Virus record (IMG/VR): IMGVR_UViG_3300025132_000054
Location: 1 to 51,192 of that record
Direction: 5' to 3' (one strand)
From: a virus
Lineage: Duplodnaviria; Caudoviricetes
Length of the DNA stretch: 51,192 bases
How positions within the stretch are numbered: position 1 is the stretch's first letter; every line of letters begins with the position of its first letter. The notes under the pieces were generated by a model. The model was given only the letters and a program-made list of their open reading frames with translations, was not told the origin of the DNA and ran no database searches. Both the position numbers and the translations under genes were made by a program. Shown piece after piece: positions 571-38,226 of the stretch.

Positions 571-876
571 CTACGGCACTGTGTCAATAGTTTGCGCGGC
601 AAGAGCGGGATTAAGAGACGCGCTTGCCAGCATCATAGTGTCGTGCCCCAGCAAACCTCCGAGGAGGATAAGTCCGAGCACAATCGTCTGGGGATTCTTC
701 ACAGCGGTGCCCCAGTCGAACTGATTGCGTTTCGCCATCTCAGTAATCTGGGCCTCGATCCTGTCTAATGTGCGAACGGAGTGCTTCTGCTCGTTCTGCA
801 CAATGGCCAACGTCTCACGGATTCCTCCGACCTGGTCTTCAAGAATCGTTACGCGCTGGTCCAAGTTCGACATCAT
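571..876 (-). CDS. small coiled-coil plus membrane protein (holin/lysis-associated candidate)
   Basis: N-terminal heptad coiled coil, then a hydrophobic segment (IVLGLILLGGLLG); ATGA overlap with the upstream gene. Confidence 0.45.
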   Translation of the reverse strand: MMSNLDQRVTILEDQVGGIRETLAIVQNEQKHSVRTLDRIEAQITEMAKRNQFDWGTAVKNPQTIVLGLILLGGLLGHDTMMLASASLNPALAAQTIDTVP

Positions 877-3800
877 TCTTCCTCAGCTCTTTTTTCTTGC
901 TCTAAAGTTTCCAGCCGGTCGCTTTTGCCTCTCAAGAGCCGCATTCGTTTGTCATGAAATCTTTTAACCGACTGAACAGTTGCTGAAATGTTTTTCGTTG
1001 AGTTAAACATGTGGATCTTCATCTCGCGAGTAAACATTTCCGCCGCTGCTAGGCGTATTCCGAGAGGACCGAGGTCTTCATATTTGTTGAACTCAAACTT
1101 TTTAATCTTACCGCCGCTCAACTCATCAATAAGAGGGTCTAAGTCTGGTATTCGCAGGGGAAACTGCGGCAAGTATACCTTCATCTGGACCCTGACTTCA
1201 TCTGGCACGGCCTCTCCGATGTCGCCCATGACTGTGGTCGCGAGCAGCCGAATGAAGTTTGGTTCGTCTCCGAGGTAAGTCATGGGGTCGAAGATCCCCG
1301 AGACTGCTAGCGGGTTTCGAGTAACATACTGTCCGTTGATAACCTCGATGTCTAGGTTGTCTTCAAGACCAAAATACTCAATGTTTTCGTAGGCGCGTTG
1401 GCTTATCTTCTTGTAGTCGGCACTGTACCCAGGGCCTATGTCTACAAGTTTGCGGACAAAGTCATTAAGAATAGCTTCCTGCGCGGGGTACAGTTGCTGC
1501 AAAAATGCCTCTGTACTGGCCTTCATTGACTTCAAGCCATCAAAGCCTAGGTCGCTGAAGAACAGAGACGCGACTCCTGCGATAGACATCTTCTGTATCT
1601 CTGCAAACGTATTCAATGTCTGAAGCACACCAAGGGGAGCGCCTGATGTGAGGACGTAACTGGTCGCCAAACTGCCTGTGTCCCGGAGATCTTCTTGAAC
1701 CTCTAAGGGCAACGCTCCTTTTTGAACAATCATCGAATCTAATAGGTAGTCGTATGGGCGAAAAATGTTTTCCCTGGTTTCGAGCTTTTTGTCCAGCACG
1801 CCCTCAATGTCTGAAAAGTCATCGCTTCCAACGCCTTGGTCTATATCACTGATGTCAACGTCAGAGCGCCTGTTCTGTATCTGGGTCATTCTGTACAAAG
1901 CACGCGCCCGCTTATAGCGTCTTCCAATCACCAGTTTGTTCATAAACCAGCGCCGCGTCTTGCTGCTGACGCTCATTACATCGGCAGCGGTGGTCAACGT
2001 CTGATTCTTTGAGTAAGTGTAGAACGTGGCATACTTGGCAATAGTCGCTGCTTCAAGCGGGCTGACGCTAAGAGTATAGTCAAAAATAGTTCGGTTCATA
2101 GCCTTAGTGGCTTCGCTTACTGACATGCCTTGGTTGACGATTAAGTCAGAGAACACCAACATCTTTGTTCGATGCGTGCCTACAGCATTGGCGTCTCTGA
2201 AGATTGCAAGCCATCTAGCATAAGGAGAAACAAACGCCTCGCCTGCTTGCTTTGTTTCTTTCACAATCGATCGTGTGCCAGCAGGATTCTCTCTGAACTC
2301 TCGATCAGCGGCAACCCGCAAAGAGTCCGACCCTTCTGTTCTTAGAATATCCTCGAAGACGCCTGCGCGAGTTGCGTCACGCTTAAAGTCTCGAGGGTTC
2401 AACTCAATCGGGTCTCCGTTGGCTTTGTAATAAGTTCGGGTTTCGTTTACGCCCTCAAGGACATCGTCCAAAAACTCGCTCATGTTTCCGCTTAGGATGC
2501 TCGGGCCTGGTACACCCAGACCGCCAAGCGCCTCGGTCCCTGCCGCGATCATACGCCGCGTGCCGTCTTGAAATGCAGGTCCAACTATAGGTACATAGCC
2601 AAGCAGTCCGATGCTTTTAATCTGCAGCGCCTTAGAGTATCCGAGCTCAATGGCAATCTTTTCAAAATCTCCATCAGCATTTCCGAAGAAAAATCTAAAC
2701 GCCTTTACTCCCGTTATTCCAAACAGCGTTTTGTTTTTCCACCAGTTGACCAGCCTACTGGGAACTCGGGTAGACTGCTCTACAAGGTGATTTCCAGCTT
2801 TGGCGCTACTTAGTGTGACATTCAAATCCTTCATTAGATTCTTTGTCTCGTAAGAGAAAGCGCCCCAGTCGATTTTAGGAATAATGTTTGGATTGCCGTT
2901 CTCATCGTATGAGTGCAGAATAAAACGAACGTAGTTGTCTCTCAAACCGTTCCATCTTTGGATAAAATCTGTATCCTTCACGACGCCCACATTCCGAGCG
3001 AGGTCCAAACCGTAAGCCATGTAGCCATCAACTAGGTCATAGCTTGCAAACTCCCCGCCCATGCGTGTCAGATTTTTAAGGGGCACTGTAGTGGTATCGC
3101 CCGCGTTGTCTATCAGCGTGACAATGCCGGTTTCAGATACTTTGCCCACTTCGTAAGTTTTCGGGGCCGCAATGTCGGATTCTAGTACAGAAGTAAACGG
3201 CTCCGGGCCTCTGCGTTTTGCGTCTAAGTCATCAAACTTTACGCGCTTGCCCTTACCTTTTGTGTCCGAAGGCTTGCGGGTTAAGATTTTTCGCAGGGGA
3301 TCGATGTCAGAGCGCAATGCGACTCGGTCACCTACCTCGATTGTTTCCCGTAGAGGTAGCGTAGTTTTGTACAGACTTGATTCGTCTGCACCACTAATCA
3401 TAAGTTCCAAAGCCCTAAGATTTCGGATGCCTAAGTTTCCAGAGGTCAAGTTGGAAACGTCTTTGACAAAGCCCCGCTCCATCGCCCCAGTGATCACGTT
3501 CTTAAATACAAGCCGGAAGCTACGTCCTGGCATTAGGAACGGGTCGGTATCTTTCCCCACGACTTTTGGAATCCTCGCTTCCTTGATCGAGTTCAGATTG
3601 ATTCTATCAATCTCCGACATCACACCCTTGCTGAGTTCAGACATGCGTTTTGACGGGTCGGGGATCAACTTTATACGCTCGGCGTTCGACAGAGTCTGCC
3701 CTTCAGGTGTTCTGTTTAACCATCTACCAAACGCTACGATTGCATCTTTGGCTTTCTTTTGGCCCCGCTGCCCGATGTTATCCCCAACGTGAGCAAGGAC

Positions 3801-6800
3801 AAAACCTTGGAGGCTGTTCGATTTTTCAAGGAAATGCTCAGTTAAGTCATCGCCTTTGGTCCTAACAAATGTTCGGCCTATTGAAGCCCAGTTATCAATC
3901 GCAAGGTTCAAAATATTGTCTGTGGCGCTGCCCCCAATCTGATTGCCCGAGACTTCGATGTTGGAACGAGTGCCCCCGAGCTCGATTCGATTCTGCGTCC
4001 CGATGTACTCAACAGCACGGGCTTTTGCAACAGAGGTTGCCTTGCCTGCGTCCTCGACTACTTGGCCCGAAAAATGCGCCAAGATGGCATCCGTATCGCT
4101 GAACCACTTTTTAATCTCTCTAGAGTTCGCGTTGGCCGCTTCTTGATACGCCTCAGCAAACTTGCTGCCCAGGACTCCCACCCGCGTGGTTGCAATGCCA
4201 GATCGATCGATCGCGTCCGCCGCTGCTATTAGTTGCGCTTGGCCAATGTACAGAGCGTCAGAGTAAAACTTTGGGCTGGCGAATCTAGTCCAGAGGACGC
4301 CGTGCTTGTTTCTCAGCCTAGTAATCGTGTTGCCTATATTCTCGTAGCCTCTAAGGGTTTCTTGGCCGATGGCTGCATACCCCAAGAACGATAACACCAA
4401 CCGCTTAGAGCCTTCCCCTCCGGTCTGCGCAATCACCTTCATCTTTGATTCGCCCGCAGCCAAGCGGTTTTGTACTTCAAAGTATTTATCGGTAATCGAT
4501 GCTACTTCTTCCGGCGCGTCCTCCATAACCTTGAGGGTTGTGGTGCCCTCGGGGGTATAGAAGCGGCTGTTGATAAAGGCTTGGCCCTCTTTTGATGCGG
4601 CGACTTCTGCCGCAGAGCGGAACATTCTGCTGACTCTCTTTACTTCCTCTAAAGAGTTCTGTTGATTGTTCCACAGGCCTGGTATTTTTTCGGTGCTCGG
4701 TGTATTGGCTAGCTTTTCGTGCGCCCGTTCGGTCAGCTCAAGCTGCTTTTCAATCTCGGCCACCTTGTCAGTCGCTTCGCCGTAGGCTTTTTCAGCTTTC
4801 GCTACCTGCTCTACCGCAAGTTCTACCAAATCATCGTAGCCCTTACCGCCATCTGCGGCGGCAGATACGATTCGCCCGAGGGCCGCGCTATCCGCCTTCC
4901 ACCCTGCCTCGCCTACGGTTTTACGCAGCTTCTCTACCGTCTCGGCCTGGTCTGCAAGCATCTGCTGGATTCTTGGTGAGGTCGCCCTAGCATCCGCCTC
5001 CTCGCTGGTCTTGACGAGGATGGTCTTGATTCTCTCACGCACGTCGGCTGACGCCTGCCGCTTCTGCGCAGGGCTGAGGTCTCCGGCCTCGATGTCGTCG
5101 AGAGACTTTTGCAGAGAAACGAGCTCGCGGTTGCGTGCCTCTAGGTCTTCAAATCGGTCAGCTTTTTCTTTCTTTGTTCGGGGAGTACCGTCAGCAGGTT
5201 TCTTTTTAACTTTTGGTTTTTCAGAAATCAGACGCGCTTCGGCGGATAGTCTATTTTGGGGGTAAGCTTGGGCCTCAAACTCTAAGCGCAACTGACGCGC
5301 CGCGCTTGTTTCATCTAACTGGCCCAGTATCTTGGACTGCTCTTGGTAAGGAAGCGCGTTGTACTCATCAGCGGTCAGGCCTAAATCTTTCAAAGTTTTT
5401 GGTTGCTCAAGATCTAAGCCAAGTTTTTTTGCTGTAGCAGCCTTTTCTAAAGGAGACAGTGCCTCAAACTCATCAACAGTCATGCCTAGATCTGCCAAAG
5501 TTGTAGGAGTCTGCGTCTTTGCTTTTGGTTTTGCTTTTGGTTTTTTGGGGGCAGCGGTCGTAGGTGTGGATAGCTGCTCCATCTGCTTGTTGACCGCAGC
5601 CTCGCGAACAGCCAAATCAATCTGGGTTTTGCGTACATCAAGTTCTGCAGATAGCTTGTCAACCTCAGCGGCTCTCTTCTCCAGCGAGGCTTTGACCACC
5701 TTAGTAGATTTTATCTTTTGTTCGGCAGCGGTCTGAGCGCCCTTGGCGGCGTCTATCTCCTCATCTAAAACTTTTGACGCATATTCAAATGCGTTCTCGG
5801 CTTGCCGCAACGCTTCCTGTTCCCCCGCAACTACCTTTGCGACCTCTTTCGCCCCTTTTGCGTTTGCGTTAAATGCGGCTTGCCTTGCGATTATCTGTTG
5901 AGCAATGCCAGCCGCACCGCTCACATCACTCTTGACTGCCGCCTCTACCGCCGCTTCAAGTTCGTCTGCAGTTTTTGCTGCTTGAATCGCATCGTCAACA
6001 AGTGCCGCGCCTCTGCGAATAGTCTTGTATGTTTTGGCCCCTTTGCCTATTAAGGACGCGGTCTTTCCAGCAGCAAACCCTGCGACACCGCCGGTAGCAG
6101 CAGCGGTCGCCTGTAGCGCATCAGGCTCGATAAGCATCCAGAACAGCCGAGGAGCGCCTGCAAGCGTGTTGGCTAAGACGGGGAAGTTTTCGTGAAGGTC
6201 TGGGTATGTAAGCCTGCCCGCCTTCATGAGCATGTTGCCTGCTGGGTCGTAACTAGACGCAATCGCCATAGTCATTCTGTCAGGGTCGTGGGAGATTTCA
6301 AAAATCTTTTGAAGAATAAACTCTCGCCTTCCCTCTTTTGGGTCCAAGATAAGTTTACCGTCCTTGTCTTTGCGGCCTCTGGCTTGATTGAGTGCAAGCC
6401 ATTCTTTATAAGCCTGCCATTCGGCAGCGGCCATAACGGTGCTTGGGGCGATTCGGATCATGTCATCTAGAGCACGGGTCGCGCCATACTCTGAAATCTC
6501 GACTCCGCCTAGTCCTTCCGCTAAGAACTCAAGACCGCCCTCCTCCGCGAGGTTTTTTTTGAACTCCTCTGGCCCCTCGATTGTACCTGCAATCGCTCTG
6601 GTTGGGAGTGTTAAAGCGCCGATTTCCCTAGCAACGGGCACTCGACCAATGCCGCCGTAAATGTCTCCCTCGAGGTAGTCCTCGATAGAGTCGCTTGTCT
6701 TGCTGTAAAGGTATGTCCCTTCGAGCTGCGCTCGTAGATGATTAATCTCTTCTTGGCCACTACGCCTTTGCTCAGTTCGGACGTATTTTTGGACCGCATC

Positions 6801-7775
6801 TCCGTAGGCCTCTGCGTCAGTATAGCCTTCTAATGGGACACCTAGTTCACGATTTCCGTCGTTAAAAGCCTGTATTGCGTCACGGCGAACCTGCAGTATA
6901 TCGCGGCCTCCGGTTATCTGCATAAGGGAGTTGGTCTCCGCGACCTCACGAACGTCCTTTAGACTGATGCTGTTCTTTGCGCGATAGCCACGCCCCTGTG
7001 TTGGGTCTTCAAAAAGAGGTACGATAACAAAAGGTAGTCCCGTCTTTTCAACATCTGGGCCTGGCGTGTATAAGCTCCGAATGTCTTGATCTGTGGGAGC
7101 GAGCTCTAATCGGTTTCGATTCTGTTCTGTATCTAGCAGCCCTGAAGTTATGCCCTGCCAATCATCGGGATTTAAGTTCGCCAGCAAGAGGGTCTTTTCC
7201 GGCCCTTCAGGCAATCGATCCGCCAACCGTTTATCAAAGTCTGTGCCAGTGACGGGCACAGAAACAGCCTTGCCCGTTTGTGTATTAAAACCAACGGCAA
7301 TAAAAAGAGGTTTTACCGTTTTAGCGTCTTCACTCACGGCGTTAAATGCGTCAATATCTAGGGTCGAGTCGGCCTTGTAGTTGTCGAGAACGTCTCGCTG
7401 AGTTTTATACACACCTTTGTTGACTCGGGTGTACGCTGTATTCCAAGCCTGTGTGAATGCTGACTCAGGAATATCAGGGTACTGGCTCATCGCGGTCTTT
7501 TTGGCCCGGTCGATGTAGTTTAAGGTCTTTATCTTCTGCTTACGCTCAAGGCGAGGCCCCATGTTTTCCGGGAGGTCTTCCTCGGTTAAGACGCCACCGC
7601 CGGTAGGCATGAACACCGCGTCTCCCAGATTCTTTTTATCTTCTTCTTCTAATGCCTCATACAGGGCATTCGCGGCAAGTATTTCAGCAGGAACTTCGGG
7701 CAGTGTTGCAATAAACTCATCCTCTAGAGGAAGGTCTTTTTCCGGCACCGTTTGTGGGTCAGGCGGAGTAGCCAT
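873..7775 (-). CDS. very large internal virion/ejection protein
   Basis: 2300 aa, Ala/Glu/Lys-rich helical; follows the tail genes; C-terminal 'AMNRTIFDYT..SPLE..FYTY' resembles large phage ejected proteins. Confidence 0.6.
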   Translation of the reverse strand: MATPPDPQTVPEKDLPLEDEFIATLPEVPAEILAANALYEALEEEDKKNLGDAVFMPTGGGVLTEEDLPENMGPRLERKQKIKTLNYIDRAKKTAMSQYPDIPESAFTQAWNTAYTRVNKGVYKTQRDVLDNYKADSTLDIDAFNAVSEDAKTVKPLFIAVGFNTQTGKAVSVPVTGTDFDKRLADRLPEGPEKTLLLANLNPDDWQGITSGLLDTEQNRNRLELAPTDQDIRSLYTPGPDVEKTGLPFVIVPLFEDPTQGRGYRAKNSISLKDVREVAETNSLMQITGGRDILQVRRDAIQAFNDGNRELGVPLEGYTDAEAYGDAVQKYVRTEQRRSGQEEINHLRAQLEGTYLYSKTSDSIEDYLEGDIYGGIGRVPVAREIGALTLPTRAIAGTIEGPEEFKKNLAEEGGLEFLAEGLGGVEISEYGATRALDDMIRIAPSTVMAAAEWQAYKEWLALNQARGRKDKDGKLILDPKEGRREFILQKIFEISHDPDRMTMAIASSYDPAGNMLMKAGRLTYPDLHENFPVLANTLAGAPRLFWMLIEPDALQATAAATGGVAGFAAGKTASLIGKGAKTYKTIRRGAALVDDAIQAAKTADELEAAVEAAVKSDVSGAAGIAQQIIARQAAFNANAKGAKEVAKVVAGEQEALRQAENAFEYASKVLDEEIDAAKGAQTAAEQKIKSTKVVKASLEKRAAEVDKLSAELDVRKTQIDLAVREAAVNKQMEQLSTPTTAAPKKPKAKPKAKTQTPTTLADLGMTVDEFEALSPLEKAATAKKLGLDLEQPKTLKDLGLTADEYNALPYQEQSKILGQLDETSAARQLRLEFEAQAYPQNRLSAEARLISEKPKVKKKPADGTPRTKKEKADRFEDLEARNRELVSLQKSLDDIEAGDLSPAQKRQASADVRERIKTILVKTSEEADARATSPRIQQMLADQAETVEKLRKTVGEAGWKADSAALGRIVSAAADGGKGYDDLVELAVEQVAKAEKAYGEATDKVAEIEKQLELTERAHEKLANTPSTEKIPGLWNNQQNSLEEVKRVSRMFRSAAEVAASKEGQAFINSRFYTPEGTTTLKVMEDAPEEVASITDKYFEVQNRLAAGESKMKVIAQTGGEGSKRLVLSFLGYAAIGQETLRGYENIGNTITRLRNKHGVLWTRFASPKFYSDALYIGQAQLIAAADAIDRSGIATTRVGVLGSKFAEAYQEAANANSREIKKWFSDTDAILAHFSGQVVEDAGKATSVAKARAVEYIGTQNRIELGGTRSNIEVSGNQIGGSATDNILNLAIDNWASIGRTFVRTKGDDLTEHFLEKSNSLQGFVLAHVGDNIGQRGQKKAKDAIVAFGRWLNRTPEGQTLSNAERIKLIPDPSKRMSELSKGVMSEIDRINLNSIKEARIPKVVGKDTDPFLMPGRSFRLVFKNVITGAMERGFVKDVSNLTSGNLGIRNLRALELMISGADESSLYKTTLPLRETIEVGDRVALRSDIDPLRKILTRKPSDTKGKGKRVKFDDLDAKRRGPEPFTSVLESDIAAPKTYEVGKVSETGIVTLIDNAGDTTTVPLKNLTRMGGEFASYDLVDGYMAYGLDLARNVGVVKDTDFIQRWNGLRDNYVRFILHSYDENGNPNIIPKIDWGAFSYETKNLMKDLNVTLSSAKAGNHLVEQSTRVPSRLVNWWKNKTLFGITGVKAFRFFFGNADGDFEKIAIELGYSKALQIKSIGLLGYVPIVGPAFQDGTRRMIAAGTEALGGLGVPGPSILSGNMSEFLDDVLEGVNETRTYYKANGDPIELNPRDFKRDATRAGVFEDILRTEGSDSLRVAADREFRENPAGTRSIVKETKQAGEAFVSPYARWLAIFRDANAVGTHRTKMLVFSDLIVNQGMSVSEATKAMNRTIFDYTLSVSPLEAATIAKYATFYTYSKNQTLTTAADVMSVSSKTRRWFMNKLVIGRRYKRARALYRMTQIQNRRSDVDISDIDQGVGSDDFSDIEGVLDKKLETRENIFRPYDYLLDSMIVQKGALPLEVQEDLRDTGSLATSYVLTSGAPLGVLQTLNTFAEIQKMSIAGVASLFFSDLGFDGLKSMKASTEAFLQQLYPAQEAILNDFVRKLVDIGPGYSADYKKISQRAYENIEYFGLEDNLDIEVINGQYVTRNPLAVSGIFDPMTYLGDEPNFIRLLATTVMGDIGEAVPDEVRVQMKVYLPQFPLRIPDLDPLIDELSGGKIKKFEFNKYEDLGPLGIRLAAAEMFTREMKIHMFNSTKNISATVQSVKRFHDKRMRLLRGKSDRLETLEQEKRAEEE

Positions 7776-13971: not shown

Positions 13972-14481
13972 CTAGCCTCGGCAGTCGATGTAACACGATG
14001 CTGTGGCGTCTGCGGCTGCGTCGGCCAAGGCAAAGCCCCAAGGGCCTGAGATGCCGTGCTCGGTCGAAGTCGCATCCTGCGCTTCCGCAATGCTTTTAAA
14101 CTCCATGGCCTTGCCATTGTCGGTGGTGTCAACGCAGACGCCTTCGTTTACGTCGAGTGTGCCTGTGCCAGCGAGAACGCTGCCGATTCCACGACGTAGA
14201 ATGAAGCCAAACTCTCCGGCAGCAATCGCGTGCTGGGCTACACCAACAACCCGTGATGCGGGAGACTCTTTGACGGCGACCTTAACGAGATAGGTCGCTG
14301 TGGCGTCCTTCCGCATTGCAACTGTGCCGACAGCGAGAGTGTCTTCTGCGTTGACGTAGATCCACTCTTGCAATCCGTTGTCACCGTCAGGGACGGTAAG
14401 AATGAATCCAAGGGGTGCTTGAGCACCCTCTACGGCAGTAGTGACTGTAGTCGGGCTAATGCCCGCTGCTGTGAAACCCAT
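13972..14481 (-). CDS. capsid decoration/cement protein
   Basis: 169 aa directly after the major capsid gene; 'VVGVAQHAIAAGEFGFI..G' motif. Confidence 0.6.
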   Translation of the reverse strand: MGFTAAGISPTTVTTAVEGAQAPLGFILTVPDGDNGLQEWIYVNAEDTLAVGTVAMRKDATATYLVKVAVKESPASRVVGVAQHAIAAGEFGFILRRGIGSVLAGTGTLDVNEGVCVDTTDNGKAMEFKSIAEAQDATSTEHGISGPWGFALADAAADATASCYIDCRG

Positions 14482-14491
14482 GAGATCCTCC

Positions 14492-15586
14492 TTATGGGGT
14501 GCCTGCGCCGGTGACGACGAAGTTGGAACGAAGCTGCGTAGTGTGGAGGCCCATCATGAGCACCAACTCGTAGCGGAAGATGTCTTGGTCAGGGATTCGG
14601 AACGGTCCACGGAGAGCAAAGTCGCCCTTCGTTTCGCGAGCCGCGTCGTGGCCAAGAGTGAACATGTGCCAAACCGAAGTCTTGAGGCCGTAGATGATAC
14701 CATCGCTCGCCGCAGTCGGGTTACCTGCGCCATCCTTGAAGGCTGCTGCAGATACGTCGATCGAGTCGTCGAGGAAGAAGTCAGCGTCGAGGAACTTAAC
14801 GCCCTGACGTACCAGAGGTGGAGCCTTGTCGCCCTCAACCTTGACCACGCGGACTTGATCGTCCAAGTCGTCGATGTAGTTGAGGTAGGAAGCCTCGTCA
14901 CCAATCATCAAATCAACAGGGCCAGCAGTCTTGCCTTGGCGCGATGCGGCGAAGTAAGCCTTACGCATTTGGCTGCGACCGTTGACAGCGAACGAGCTGA
15001 TGTCTTCGTACTGGTTGTTCCAGCCGCTGATAGCGCCTGCACCTGCACCTGCGCACTTCAGTCCGTGGACTGTCTTGGCAGAAGAAGCGGAGATCTGCAG
15101 AATACCATCGCGAGCAGTGCCGTCTGGGTTGAACGTCGTGTTGCCGTTCAGGGTGGCGAAGCCGCCAACTTGGTTGCCGTTTCCTGTTCCAAGCTGATCG
15201 GAGATCCGCTCATGGAAGTCAGACAGAGCCAACTCTGGGTAGTGCTGAAGGATTCGTGCGAGGTCCATCTCGCCGTTGGCTTCAGCCAAGTCCTTGCCGG
15301 GAACGTCGAACGCATAGATGAGACGTGGTGCAAGCACGTTGCCTCGGTGCGCATTCTGCGAACGTCCACCTGCGATAACTTCAGAACCGGTGTTGACTTG
15401 CGTCACAGTACCTGGACCATCGGTTACAACAGCAAACTCGCGGCGTGGGCCTTTGAGTGTGTCACGGGTCATATTCCCGTTCAACATGATTTTTTCCATC
15501 AAGGGGTGAAACTTGACGAACATTTCACTGTACGAAGGCATAAGCTCATTGAGCGCCGTCGCCAGTACGTCGGGTGAGATGGCCAT
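14492..15586 (-). CDS. major capsid protein
   Basis: 364 aa after the scaffold; strong AGGAGG RBS; strong codon bias; HK97-fold-like size and layout. Confidence 0.75.
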   Translation of the reverse strand: MAISPDVLATALNELMPSYSEMFVKFHPLMEKIMLNGNMTRDTLKGPRREFAVVTDGPGTVTQVNTGSEVIAGGRSQNAHRGNVLAPRLIYAFDVPGKDLAEANGEMDLARILQHYPELALSDFHERISDQLGTGNGNQVGGFATLNGNTTFNPDGTARDGILQISASSAKTVHGLKCAGAGAGAISGWNNQYEDISSFAVNGRSQMRKAYFAASRQGKTAGPVDLMIGDEASYLNYIDDLDDQVRVVKVEGDKAPPLVRQGVKFLDADFFLDDSIDVSAAAFKDGAGNPTAASDGIIYGLKTSVWHMFTLGHDAARETKGDFALRGPFRIPDQDIFRYELVLMMGLHTTQLRSNFVVTGAGTP

Positions 15587-37166: not shown

Positions 37167-37279
37167 TGTATGAACCCGTGTTTAGTTTAGTAGACCTAGC
37201 CCTCTTTACCGTGGCTGCGTTGGTCGGTTTCTGGTGGAGCACGCTGGATGTTTCTGGCAATGGGAGGAACGGTGAATGA
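37163..37279 (+). CDS. 38-aa membrane peptide (MMYEPVFSLVDLALFTVAALVGFWW...)
   Basis: ATGA overlaps at both ends; one hydrophobic helix. Confidence 0.55.
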   Translation: MMYEPVFSLVDLALFTVAALVGFWWSTLDVSGNGRNGE

Positions 37280-38219
37280 GCTGGCACTATTCGCAGGCGC
37301 AGGCGGCGGACTTCTCGGTGGACGACTACTTGGCTGGACTCCGGTCTGCGCAGTCGAGATTGAAGAGTACCCCCGGAACATCTTGCTCGCCCGACAAAGG
37401 GACGGGTGCCTTCCAGCCTTCCCTGTTTGGGACGATGTCCGTACCTTTAACGGGCATCCATGGCACGGGGTCACCGATGTCATCACCGGAGGATTTCCAT
37501 GCACGGACATTAGCTCGGCGGGTCGCGGTCAAGGACTTGCCGGAGAGCGTTCGGGACTATGGTTTGAAATGCTCCGTATTATTGGAGAGGTGCGGCCTCC
37601 TTTTGTCTTCGCGGAAAACAGTCCGTACCTTCGTACCCGTGGCCTTGGCGTCGTCATCGAAGGACTTACCGGCTTGGGGTATGACGTTCGGTGGTGTGTG
37701 CTGGGGGCTTGGCACACGGGTAATCCGTCCGCCCCGCACCGAAGGAACCGCATGTGGATATATGCTTCCGACCCCAACAGCGAACGAGTACGGAACGAAC
37801 ACCGCGATTGGCGGGAAGCCTCGCCCGTCGTTGAGCACGATGGCCAGGCAGGACTTGTGGCCGACGCCGATGGCATCCGACTGGAAGAACATGGACACTG
37901 CAAAGCAGGTAAGTCTGTCAGCTATAGTTCGCGACCCGGACCTGTGGCCGACGCCAACAGCTCGCGACTGGAAAGACACACCGGGGTTCAAGAAGCAACG
38001 GAAGGACGGCAAACGTCGGGACGACTTGCTCCCCCGGAAGATGTATATTGTGGAGCAGACGCCGTCGCGTGGTGGGCATCTGAACCCGACGTGGGTCGAG
38101 TGGTTAATGGGGTGGCCGCTAGGCTGGACCGAAAGGCGAGGCTTCAGTCAATCGGCAATGGACAGGTTCCAGCAGTGGCTGCGCTTGCATGGAGTATCCT
38201 CCACGGAGCAGACCGATGA
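37272..38219 (+). CDS. DNA (cytosine-5) methyltransferase, alpha chain lacking motif IX
   Basis: motif I FAGAGG, IV GGFPC, VI ENS, VIII HRRNR, X RLQSIGNG; GTG start after GGGAGG. Confidence 0.9.
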   Translation: MNELALFAGAGGGLLGGRLLGWTPVCAVEIEEYPRNILLARQRDGCLPAFPVWDDVRTFNGHPWHGVTDVITGGFPCTDISSAGRGQGLAGERSGLWFEMLRIIGEVRPPFVFAENSPYLRTRGLGVVIEGLTGLGYDVRWCVLGAWHTGNPSAPHRRNRMWIYASDPNSERVRNEHRDWREASPVVEHDGQAGLVADADGIRLEEHGHCKAGKSVSYSSRPGPVADANSSRLERHTGVQEATEGRQTSGRLAPPEDVYCGADAVAWWASEPDVGRVVNGVAARLDRKARLQSIGNGQVPAVAALAWSILHGADR

Positions 38220-38226
38220 GCGGTAA
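37276..38226 (+). CDS. overlapping-frame methyltransferase beta chain (WPTP repeats plus motif IX-like)
   Basis: 316-aa open frame; three 'PTP.A' repeats; 'LNPTWVEWLMGWPLGWT' resembles motif IX; ATG coupled to the upstream stop. Confidence 0.7.
   Translation: MSWHYSQAQAADFSVDDYLAGLRSAQSRLKSTPGTSCSPDKGTGAFQPSLFGTMSVPLTGIHGTGSPMSSPEDFHARTLARRVAVKDLPESVRDYGLKCSVLLERCGLLLSSRKTVRTFVPVALASSSKDLPAWGMTFGGVCWGLGTRVIRPPRTEGTACGYMLPTPTANEYGTNTAIGGKPRPSLSTMARQDLWPTPMASDWKNMDTAKQVSLSAIVRDPDLWPTPTARDWKDTPGFKKQRKDGKRRDDLLPRKMYIVEQTPSRGGHLNPTWVEWLMGWPLGWTERRGFSQSAMDRFQQWLRLHGVSSTEQTDER

Follow-up and report, generated by a model that had tools for sequence, protein, structure and literature searches.

Two fully overlapping reading frames of a phage methylase gene probably encode the two chains of one C5-methyltransferase

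Introduction

The vast majority of characterised C5-methyltransferases are monomeric, and the available text of PMC3404938 treats M.EcoHK31I and M.AquI as exceptions. In M.EcoHK31I (YGGCCR) another reading frame within the alpha gene codes for the beta chain, which supplies motif IX, while the alpha chain keeps motifs I-VIII, motif X and the recognition domain, as the accessible parts of PMC2836561 and PMC3404938 describe it. Here we analyse a phage methylase gene in which two frames of one strand are both open over nearly all of the same DNA. The gene lies in a stretch of 51,192 bases, an IMG/VR virus record with a CheckV completeness of 96%, which we call the window. An earlier reading of its letters (the original prediction) had proposed a two-chain enzyme from about 950 bp of dual-coding DNA. 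Conservation of the layout, avoidance of stop codons, a switch of selection between the frames, the pair of start codons and a model of the complex all support that proposal, and we put the probability of an obligate alpha-beta C5-methyltransferase made from two starts 4 nucleotides (nt) apart at roughly 0.8.

The locus resembles M.EcoHK31I in being a two-polypeptide C5-methyltransferase with two open reading frames (ORFs) in different frames of the same DNA. The original prediction had drawn this analogy, which holds for the idea of reading the same DNA in a second frame to obtain a second chain (PMC2836561, in its available part) and fails for the parts that each chain carries. Compared by description only, the beta chain of M.EcoHK31I contributes motif IX only and its alpha chain has the recognition domain (available text of PMC2836561 and PMC3404938), whereas the beta chain of the window is as long as its partner (316 versus 315 amino acids), starts 4 nt after it and carries the whole presumed recognition region, with a disordered linker at that place in alpha. 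The overlap is total, unlike that in M.EcoHK31I, and leaves a passenger segment in each chain. The accessible part of PMC3404938 describes a naturally two-chain C5-methyltransferase in which the division falls after motif VIII, as it does in a minority of the relatives reported below (L114, L102, L164 and L192/L205); the window differs from that enzyme in that motif X stays with alpha and in that the genes overlap completely rather than lying end to end. The monomeric enzymes M.HhaI and M.HaeIII (PF00145) share the large-domain fold and motifs with frame A which, unlike monomeric enzymes, leaves PF00145 unmatched beyond position 181 of 324, the small domain not being in that chain.

The full-text literature that we searched, with REBASE and most subscription journals outside it, holds no prior account of whole-gene dual coding in phage methylases, and an earlier description is possible; M.EcoHK31I and M.AquI were the only precedents found. 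In the available part of the PRFect paper, methyltransferases appear only within a list of genes reported with frameshifts.

Two open frames over the same DNA

The gene has a G+C content of 60% and the following layout.

37262..37267, plus strand: Shine-Dalgarno-like GGGAGG common to both starts, read from the sequence
37272..38219, plus strand: frame A (alpha chain), with catalytic core, linker and motif X; alternative in-frame ATG codons at 37248 and 37260
37276..38226, plus strand: frame B (beta chain), the +1 ORF, with leader, WPTPxA repeats and motif IX-like block

The ORF of frame A spans 37248..38219 (+) and gives 323 amino acids from its first ATG or 315 from the GTG at 37272, and that of frame B, in the +1 register, spans 37276..38226 (+) and gives 316. 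Both are open across about 945 nt of common DNA; the third frame of the same DNA contains 13 stops. The single GGGAGG lies 4 nt before the frame-A GTG and 8 nt before the frame-B ATG, and an in-frame TGA (37273-37275) stands immediately 5' of that ATG (GTGAATGAG).

Most of what the original prediction had read from the letters is borne out. The 316-residue +1 frame is open over the same DNA, one GGGAGG (37262-37267) precedes both starts, and frame B has three PTPxA repeats (LPTPTAN, WPTPMASDWK and WPTPTARDWK). Frame A has motifs I, IV, VI, VIII and X (LFAGAGGG, GGFPCTDIS, ENSP, HRRNRMW and GNGQVP) and lacks motif IX, in place of which a disordered linker separates VIII from X. The claim that the frame-B start overlaps an upstream stop as ATGA did not stand: that TGA (37277-37279) belongs to the third frame, and no ORF of at least 50 amino acids ends there. 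The relevant stop near the frame-B start is the in-frame TGA at 37273-37275.

Frame A has the large domain of a C5-methyltransferase

Column conservation in frame A was computed over 88 sequences whose frame-A identity to the window is 44-65%.

37287..37310, plus strand: motif I, LFAGAGGG, S-adenosylmethionine binding; L6, F7, A8, G9, A10, G11, G12 and G13 invariant or nearly so in the 88 sequences
37488..37514, plus strand: motif IV, GGFPCTDIS, with catalytic Cys77; G73, G74, F75, P76 and C77 invariant
37614..37625, plus strand: motif VI, ENSP; N116 invariant, E115, S117 and P118 conserved in at least 90%
37737..37757, plus strand: motif VIII, HRRNRMW; R160 and W162 invariant, H156 and R158 in at least 90%
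37851..38120, plus strand: linker, residues 194-283; poorly conserved (low column information), confidence below 50 in the structure prediction
38154..38171, plus strand: motif X, GNGQVP (residues 295-300); G295, N296, G297, Q298 and V299 in at least 90%, helix 300-312 confidently predicted

Frame A matches Pfam PF00145 (2.7e-27) only over profile positions 5-181 of 324, the portion up to motif VIII; it also matches phrog_363 (1e-55) and positions 212-375 of the phrog_116 profile. When frame A was modelled alone with AlphaFold2 (AF2), residues 1-190 and 300-312 were confident and residues 194-283 had a predicted local distance difference test score (pLDDT) below 50. The best Foldseek matches of this model are M.HhaI (1fjx, E 1.4e-12) and M.HaeIII, over about 175 columns. 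Motif X was located by pattern and conservation, the local Pfam and hhalign matches ending before it. By its motifs I, IV, VI and VIII, its fold and its motif X, frame A is the large domain of a C5-cytosine DNA methyltransferase, and between motifs VIII and X it has nothing that is conserved or folded.

Frame B is related to the C-terminal half of methylases

37276..37755, plus strand: leader, residues 1-160, over motifs I-VIII of frame A; open, with weak amino-acid constraint, mostly coil when modelled alone
37669..37689, plus strand: LPAWGMT strand, predicted to pair with frame-A residues 138-141; P132, W134 and G135 conserved, lowest expected-error contacts of the complex model
37765..37974, plus strand: repeat region, the proposed target-recognition part; T166/P167 and T226/P227 conserved
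37765-37785, plus strand: LPTPTAN, residues 164-170, from the sequence
37858-37887, plus strand: WPTPMASDWK, residues 195-204, from the sequence
37945-37974, plus strand: WPTPTARDWK, residues 224-233, from the sequence
38080..38130, plus strand: LNPTWVEWLMGWPLGWT, residues 269-285, motif IX-like, dual-coded with the conserved EPDVGRVVNGVAARLDR of frame A; the most conserved block of frame B

Frame B as a whole matches no Pfam family, and a PDB sequence search with it found nothing. It matches phrog_1008 ('DNA methyltransferase') at 2.2e-20. Its relatives number 4031 when clustered at 90% identity, none with a Pfam domain, and 11449 frame-B-like cluster representatives at 50% identity were found at E<=1e-3; the nearest Atlas clusters are viral 'hypothetical protein'. 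Across the 95 loci with an intact pair of frames, the number of PTP modules in frame B ranges from 0 to 12 and grows with its length. The L.P....LMG.P block, whose family pattern is LNPxWVEWLMGWPxGWT, sits where a motif IX would be expected, before motif X.

The frame-B profile aligns with gp77 of mycobacteriophage Nyxis (hhalign probability 98.9%, E 2.6e-17), which in turn matches phrog_116 over profile positions 409-489. Because gp77 is a homologue and its part of phrog_116 follows the positions 212-375 that frame A covers, these profile matches tie frame B to the C-terminal half of methylases. We also looked for a canonical relative with a B-type region in frame with motifs I-VIII by searching with frame-B residues 160-300; none was found among the 120 proteins listed, of which only two have PF00145, and both are frame chimeras.

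The layout is conserved in phages and prophages

Hundreds of phages and prophages keep this layout. Three sets of relatives were examined. A frame-B-selected set of 84 loci comprises 80 kept of 595 relatives from an IMG/VR scan, three GenBank phages and the window; since this set was chosen through frame B, a scan with frame A only was made and gave 34 loci; and a bacterial set, from one genome per species, kept 80 of 178 relatives.

A tblastn search of GenBank phages with frame B returned 17 records, and in all five that were opened the match lies in the +1 frame of an annotated methylase coding sequence (CDS). Neither frame is interrupted between the common start region and the end in Acinetobacter phage ABMM1, Salmonella phage S9-5 or Vibrio phage 1.003.O. 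In 80 of the 84 B-selected loci frame A runs to its end without a stop and has motifs I, IV and X. Conservation of the second frame, on which the original prediction depended, was found: in 33 of the 34 A-selected loci the +1 frame runs without a stop from the B start to the 3' end region, and the +2 frame has 5-23 stops. Under all strict criteria the layout is present in 67 of the 80 bacterial loci; eight more have both frames open for at least 700 nt with one motif pattern missed, and in five frame A is cut short after motif VIII. The bacterial loci come from Pseudomonadota, Verrucomicrobiota, Planctomycetota, Bacteroidota, Acidobacteriota, Chloroflexota and other phyla. Phages with a G+C content of 48-52% have frame B open as well. 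In the GenBank phages and in RefSeq Escherichia coli prophages only frame A is annotated.

The exceptions of the B-selected set are L033, L051, L064 and L081, in each of which one frame is cut short. The sole exception of the A-selected set, L118, an isolate-genome prophage from IMG/VR, has its frames swapped in mid-gene by two compensating shifts. There, a 338-residue ORF (L118:1438-2454) joins motifs I and IV of frame A, the centre of frame B with repeats and motif IX-like block, and motif X of frame A, and motifs VI-VIII of frame A stand in a separate 148-residue ORF; the arrangement could have come about through two compensating changes of frame, whether genuine or due to assembly. In L137 and L199, from bacterial metagenome-assembled genomes (MAGs), frame A meets a stop shortly past motif VIII, with motif X readable further on in frame and frame B intact; these loci may be prophage copies in decay or the result of misassembly.

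The two start codons are conserved as a pair

Among 110 unique loci, the frame-A start lies exactly 4 nt before the frame-B start in 85, as NTGAATGAG. In most of the others it lies 6-63 nt further upstream, and in five loci no upstream start was found in frame A. The frame-B start codon is ATG in 100 loci, GTG in 8 and TTG in 2. A Shine-Dalgarno-like word occurs within 20 nt upstream in 69 of the 83 loci that have the 4-nt spacing and sequence context, and the second codon of frame A is AAT, which creates the ATG of frame B, in 24 of 27 A-selected loci. The pair of start codons is thus conserved.

Stop codons are avoided and selection switches between frames

We compared the stop content of each frame with that of 200 shuffles per gene, in which synonymous codons were exchanged with the protein and its codon usage kept. 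For the window, B acquired 5.6 stops on average when A was kept and A acquired 6.0 when B was kept, and none of 200 shuffles was open either way. Across the loci 2-11 stops per gene are expected in B and 4-20 in A, most loci being open in 0-5% of shuffles. The +2 frame of the relatives' genes has 5-28 stops. The shuffles predict 3.17 stops per locus over the B leader and 3.64 over the A linker; in 95 loci neither segment has any. These results confirm that frame B is open beyond chance and that the layout is real.

In an alignment of 95 intact A/B pairs, frame A is strongly conserved at nt 37272-37770 (motifs I-VIII) and 38082-38200 (EPxVGRV...GNGQVP). Frame B reaches its highest conservation at 38080-38130, with a moderate level over the WPTP repeats, and the centre of the gene is variable and indel-rich in both frames. 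Conservation of B peaks where that of A is lowest, and the order of conserved blocks along the DNA is A core, B centre, A end.

The periodicity of substitutions, counted as mismatches per frame-A codon position in 14 disjoint pairs of close relatives, gave the following fractions for positions 1/2/3.

N-terminal half: 0.28/0.13/0.59
Centre: 0.54/0.27/0.19
Last 30 codons (motif X): 0.29/0.22/0.49

Position 1 of A is the wobble position of B, and it is there that the mismatches of the linker and repeat region fall. Because this central peak coincides with the wobble position of B, selection passes from A to B and back to A along the gene. In the C-terminal block the identity is 0.65 in A and 0.605 in B, against 0.287 for B after shuffling, and this block is constrained in both frames at once. 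For the B leader the identity is 0.40 versus 0.295 after shuffling, and is the higher in 45 of 47 pairs. Purifying selection is detectable in each frame; for the B leader and the A linker it is seen as stop avoidance only. An OLGenie-style ratio of non-synonymous/non-synonymous to non-synonymous/synonymous substitution rates (dNN/dNS) was considered for the B leader and rejected, as it confounds constraint on B with the difference between positions 1 and 2 of A.

A model of the complex

Prediction of the heterodimer had been proposed as a check. In three runs the model of A with B had an interaction prediction score from aligned errors (ipSAE) of 0.89 every time, whereas the highest-scoring of three controls had 0.27; the mark applied is reached by 58 of 80 solved complexes and by 2 of 110 mismatched pairs, and with our own alignments in use this calibration is only rough. 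The runs have at least 70% of contacts in common, with a partner pLDDT of 59-64. In the model, frame-A residues 286-301 (motif X) contact frame-B residues 266-291, A 138-141 pairs with B 133-138, and leader residues 1-26 and 95-108 of B also contact A. The model supports binding without demonstrating it, and its score may reflect likeness to solved monomeric C5-methyltransferases, the two chains being modelled as halves of a known fold.

Variant layouts and relatives of the gene

In L114, L102, L164 and L192/L205, motif X (..IGNGQVP..) follows LNPxWVEWLMGWP in frame B, and frame A ends just past motif VIII. Because frame A ends after motif VIII in loci with motif X in frame B, the linker of frame A stays open only in genes whose frame A must run through it to motif X. 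L114 and L102 are viral contigs; L164, L192 and L205 come from a Sphaerochaetaceae MAG and Paraburkholderia caffeinilytica. In this minority layout a short alpha gene is nested wholly in a beta gene that has leader, repeats, motif IX-like block and motif X.

Actinophages have a comparable pair of genes. Nyxis gp78 carries motifs I-VIII (PF00145 positions 3-161), and gp77, which comes next in the +1 frame, carries LLPTP repeats, SEWMMGWEEGW and motif X; each is annotated 'DNA methyltransferase'. As in the window, the second gene of these pairs (Nyxis gp78/gp77 and gp34/gp35 of Streptomyces phage RemusLoopin) lies in the +1 frame of the first, and like frame B it has LLPTPxAxD repeats, a SEWMMGWEEGW-like block and a match to phrog_1008. 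Unlike the window, the annotated CDSs overlap by only 26 and 32 nt, though the open frame of the second gene covers some 170 to 270 nt of the first; the first gene ends past motif VIII and leaves motif X to the second, and there is neither a common start nor a passenger segment.

Two Streptococcus phages, SpGS-1 (L124:1200-1679) and Javan49 (L126:1176-1679), have single-chain C5-methylases with a full PF00145 profile match, in which an open +1 frame of about 160 codons extends over motifs II-VIII. No stops occur there, against 8.1 and 3.5 expected, and 0% and 1.1% of 1000 shuffles were open; the enzyme of a T4-like Klebsiella phage (L125) has 6 stops in this frame, against 6.0 expected. The +1 product of the Streptococcus phage genes matches phrog_16143 ('DNA methyltransferase', 9e-52) and the B leader (hhalign probability 88%). 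To judge from these sequences, the second frame across the catalytic core may have an independent function, and, because two single-chain enzymes keep it open, it may be older than the split itself.

The database proteins P0252 and P0294, from one contig each, start in A and continue in B. They are most simply taken as sequencing frameshifts; because both frames are open, any indel gives a plausible chimeric ORF.

More distant genes in phage C72C1 (L084:1195-1770) and in L085:1159-1992 have a B-like +1 ORF that begins within frame A, with WPTP repeats and LNPxWVEWLMG.P, and frame A retains motif X; in phage C72C1 and Manatee Spring podovirus the start of the B-like ORF is internal to the A gene. 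Giant versions also occur. Those in L096:1501-3489 and L098:1501-3489 span about 2 kb, with 662 open codons in frame A and 653 in frame B, the latter containing 12 PTP modules; the corresponding figures for L100 are 528 and 508 codons, and L038 is also listed as giant. In the closest viral relative of the window (L004:1498-3153), frame B has 551 codons and runs past the end of A into the region of the next gene.

Discussion

From these observations we infer that both frames are translated, that the products assemble, how they divide the labour and what role they serve. One mRNA would give two proteins from frames that overlap across nearly all of the same DNA: a ribosome at the single Shine-Dalgarno sequence would initiate either at GTG 37272, for A, or 4 nt further on at ATG 37276, for B. 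Alpha would be a full large catalytic domain, with motifs I-VIII, a disordered linker of about 90 residues that is the other-frame reading of the recognition region of beta, and motif X. Beta would begin with a leader of about 160 residues, the other-frame reading of the alpha core and selected mainly for openness, and continue with the WPTPxA modules and LNPxWVEWLMGWPxGWT; the modules and the block would replace the target-recognition domain and motif IX, that is, the small domain. The heterodimer would then be equivalent to a monomeric enzyme such as M.HhaI, and would most likely methylate the phage's own DNA against host restriction.

Several observations weigh against this two-chain reading. 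The periodicity of the B leader resembles that of a sequence selected in frame A alone, for which reason about half of beta may be a passenger, and the modest excess of leader identity could come in part from unsaturated synonymous sites. When frame B is modelled alone with AF2 the mean pLDDT is 56.5 and the leader is mostly coil. The original prediction had taken LNPTWVEWLMGWPLGWT to resemble motif IX; the pattern and the place agree with this, while profile comparison lends it no support. Homology with Nyxis gp77 and the matches to phrog_116 indirectly favour a small domain, with motif IX and target recognition, in frame B. No Pfam family was found for the whole of frame B or for ten C-terminal fragments, the B profile searched against the PDB gave only a chance-level match (3nng, E 0.51), and hhalign of that profile with three canonical phage methylases gave a probability of 0.1%; the likeness is thus at the level of pattern only. 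There are also the broken loci (L033, L051, L064, L081, L137 and L199, with the frames swapped in L118), and in the minority layout a single +1 ribosomal frameshift would also yield a canonical single chain.

The absence of a Pfam family, the 'hypothetical protein' annotation of the nearest Atlas clusters and the lack of statistical support for motif IX would all suit a frame B that encodes a real protein other than a methyltransferase subunit, such as a regulator or an anti-defence protein, overprinted on a methylase gene that functions in some different way; the +1 ORF over the core of the two single-chain Streptococcus phage methylases likewise hints at a role of its own. We regard this as unlikely. 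Frame A would be left without a recognition domain, having only a disordered, unconserved linker in that place, and frame B is homologous to the actinophage gene that is annotated as a second methylase gene and ends in motif X. Motif X is, moreover, fused in frame to B in some relatives, and the complex model sets the conserved block of B against motif X of A.

Programmed frameshifting offers another route, in which a single polypeptide would take motifs I-VIII from A, shift +1 into B to read the recognition region with the motif IX-like block, and return for motif X, giving an ordinary single-chain methyltransferase; we consider it very improbable. Such a chain would have no need of an open B leader or A linker, yet neither has a stop in 95 loci (about 3.2 and 3.6 expected per locus), and no need of a start codon for B, yet one is kept 4 nt past that of A. 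The order of the conserved blocks does match a monomeric enzyme, and in the minority layout (L164, L192, L114) a single +1 shift would be enough; the layout of the window requires two shifts of opposite sign. The rare A-to-B chimeras P0252 and P0294 are what frameshifting might produce, but they are single-contig clusters, as expected from sequencing frameshifts.

That only frame A is a gene, with +1 open by chance or composition and the similarity of B a shadow of conservation in A, deserves hardly any credence: long off-frame ORFs are commoner in DNA of 60% G+C, and much of the B leader is forced by the motifs of A (DFHART is the +1 reading of GFPCTDIS), yet frame B is open also at 48-52% G+C, the +2 frame of the same genes has 5-28 stops, shuffles that keep the A protein and its codon usage are almost never open, selection in the centre acts on B and not on A, with B most conserved where A is least, and the loci, at 44-65% frame-A identity to the window, are not near-identical copies.

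Beyond the window, we lean, with little assurance, towards the view that these phage and prophage C5-methyltransferases form a very large clade of obligate heterodimers whose genes overlap over their full length (0.7-2 kb). A constant catalytic subunit would be paired with an exchangeable, repeat-built recognition subunit, much like a Type I specificity subunit, and each chain would include a translated passenger. If both chains are made, this would be dual coding on a textbook scale, with two proteins of about 315 residues from 945 bases in many bacterial phyla, the frame under selection being cleanly divided along the gene; few conserved same-strand dual-coding regions of double-stranded DNA phages would be longer or more widespread. 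The arrangement suggests modular catalytic and specificity subunits, the recognition part being built from repeats in 0 to 12 copies, and may explain short phage 'Dcm-like' ORFs that seem to have no recognition domain.

There are practical consequences as well. Standard annotation calls one frame and so systematically misses one gene of the pair, and thousands of frame-B proteins carry the database label 'hypothetical protein' and belong to no Pfam family. A codon-optimised copy, or a construct made from frame A alone, would silently destroy beta. The occurrence of motif X in either frame offers a ready series for studying how overlapping genes originate and become locked in.

Other features of the window

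The genes of the window include those for portal, large terminase, primase, helicase and DNA polymerase, and a megablast search with 15 kb of it matched no GenBank phage. On the minus strand, at 873-7775, an ORF of 2300 amino acids lies amid the structural genes, with no PHROG match at 1e-5. Elsewhere, two ORFs of 378 and 364 amino acids, at 14441-15577 (+) and 14492-15586 (-), are mutually antisense and occupy nearly the same DNA.

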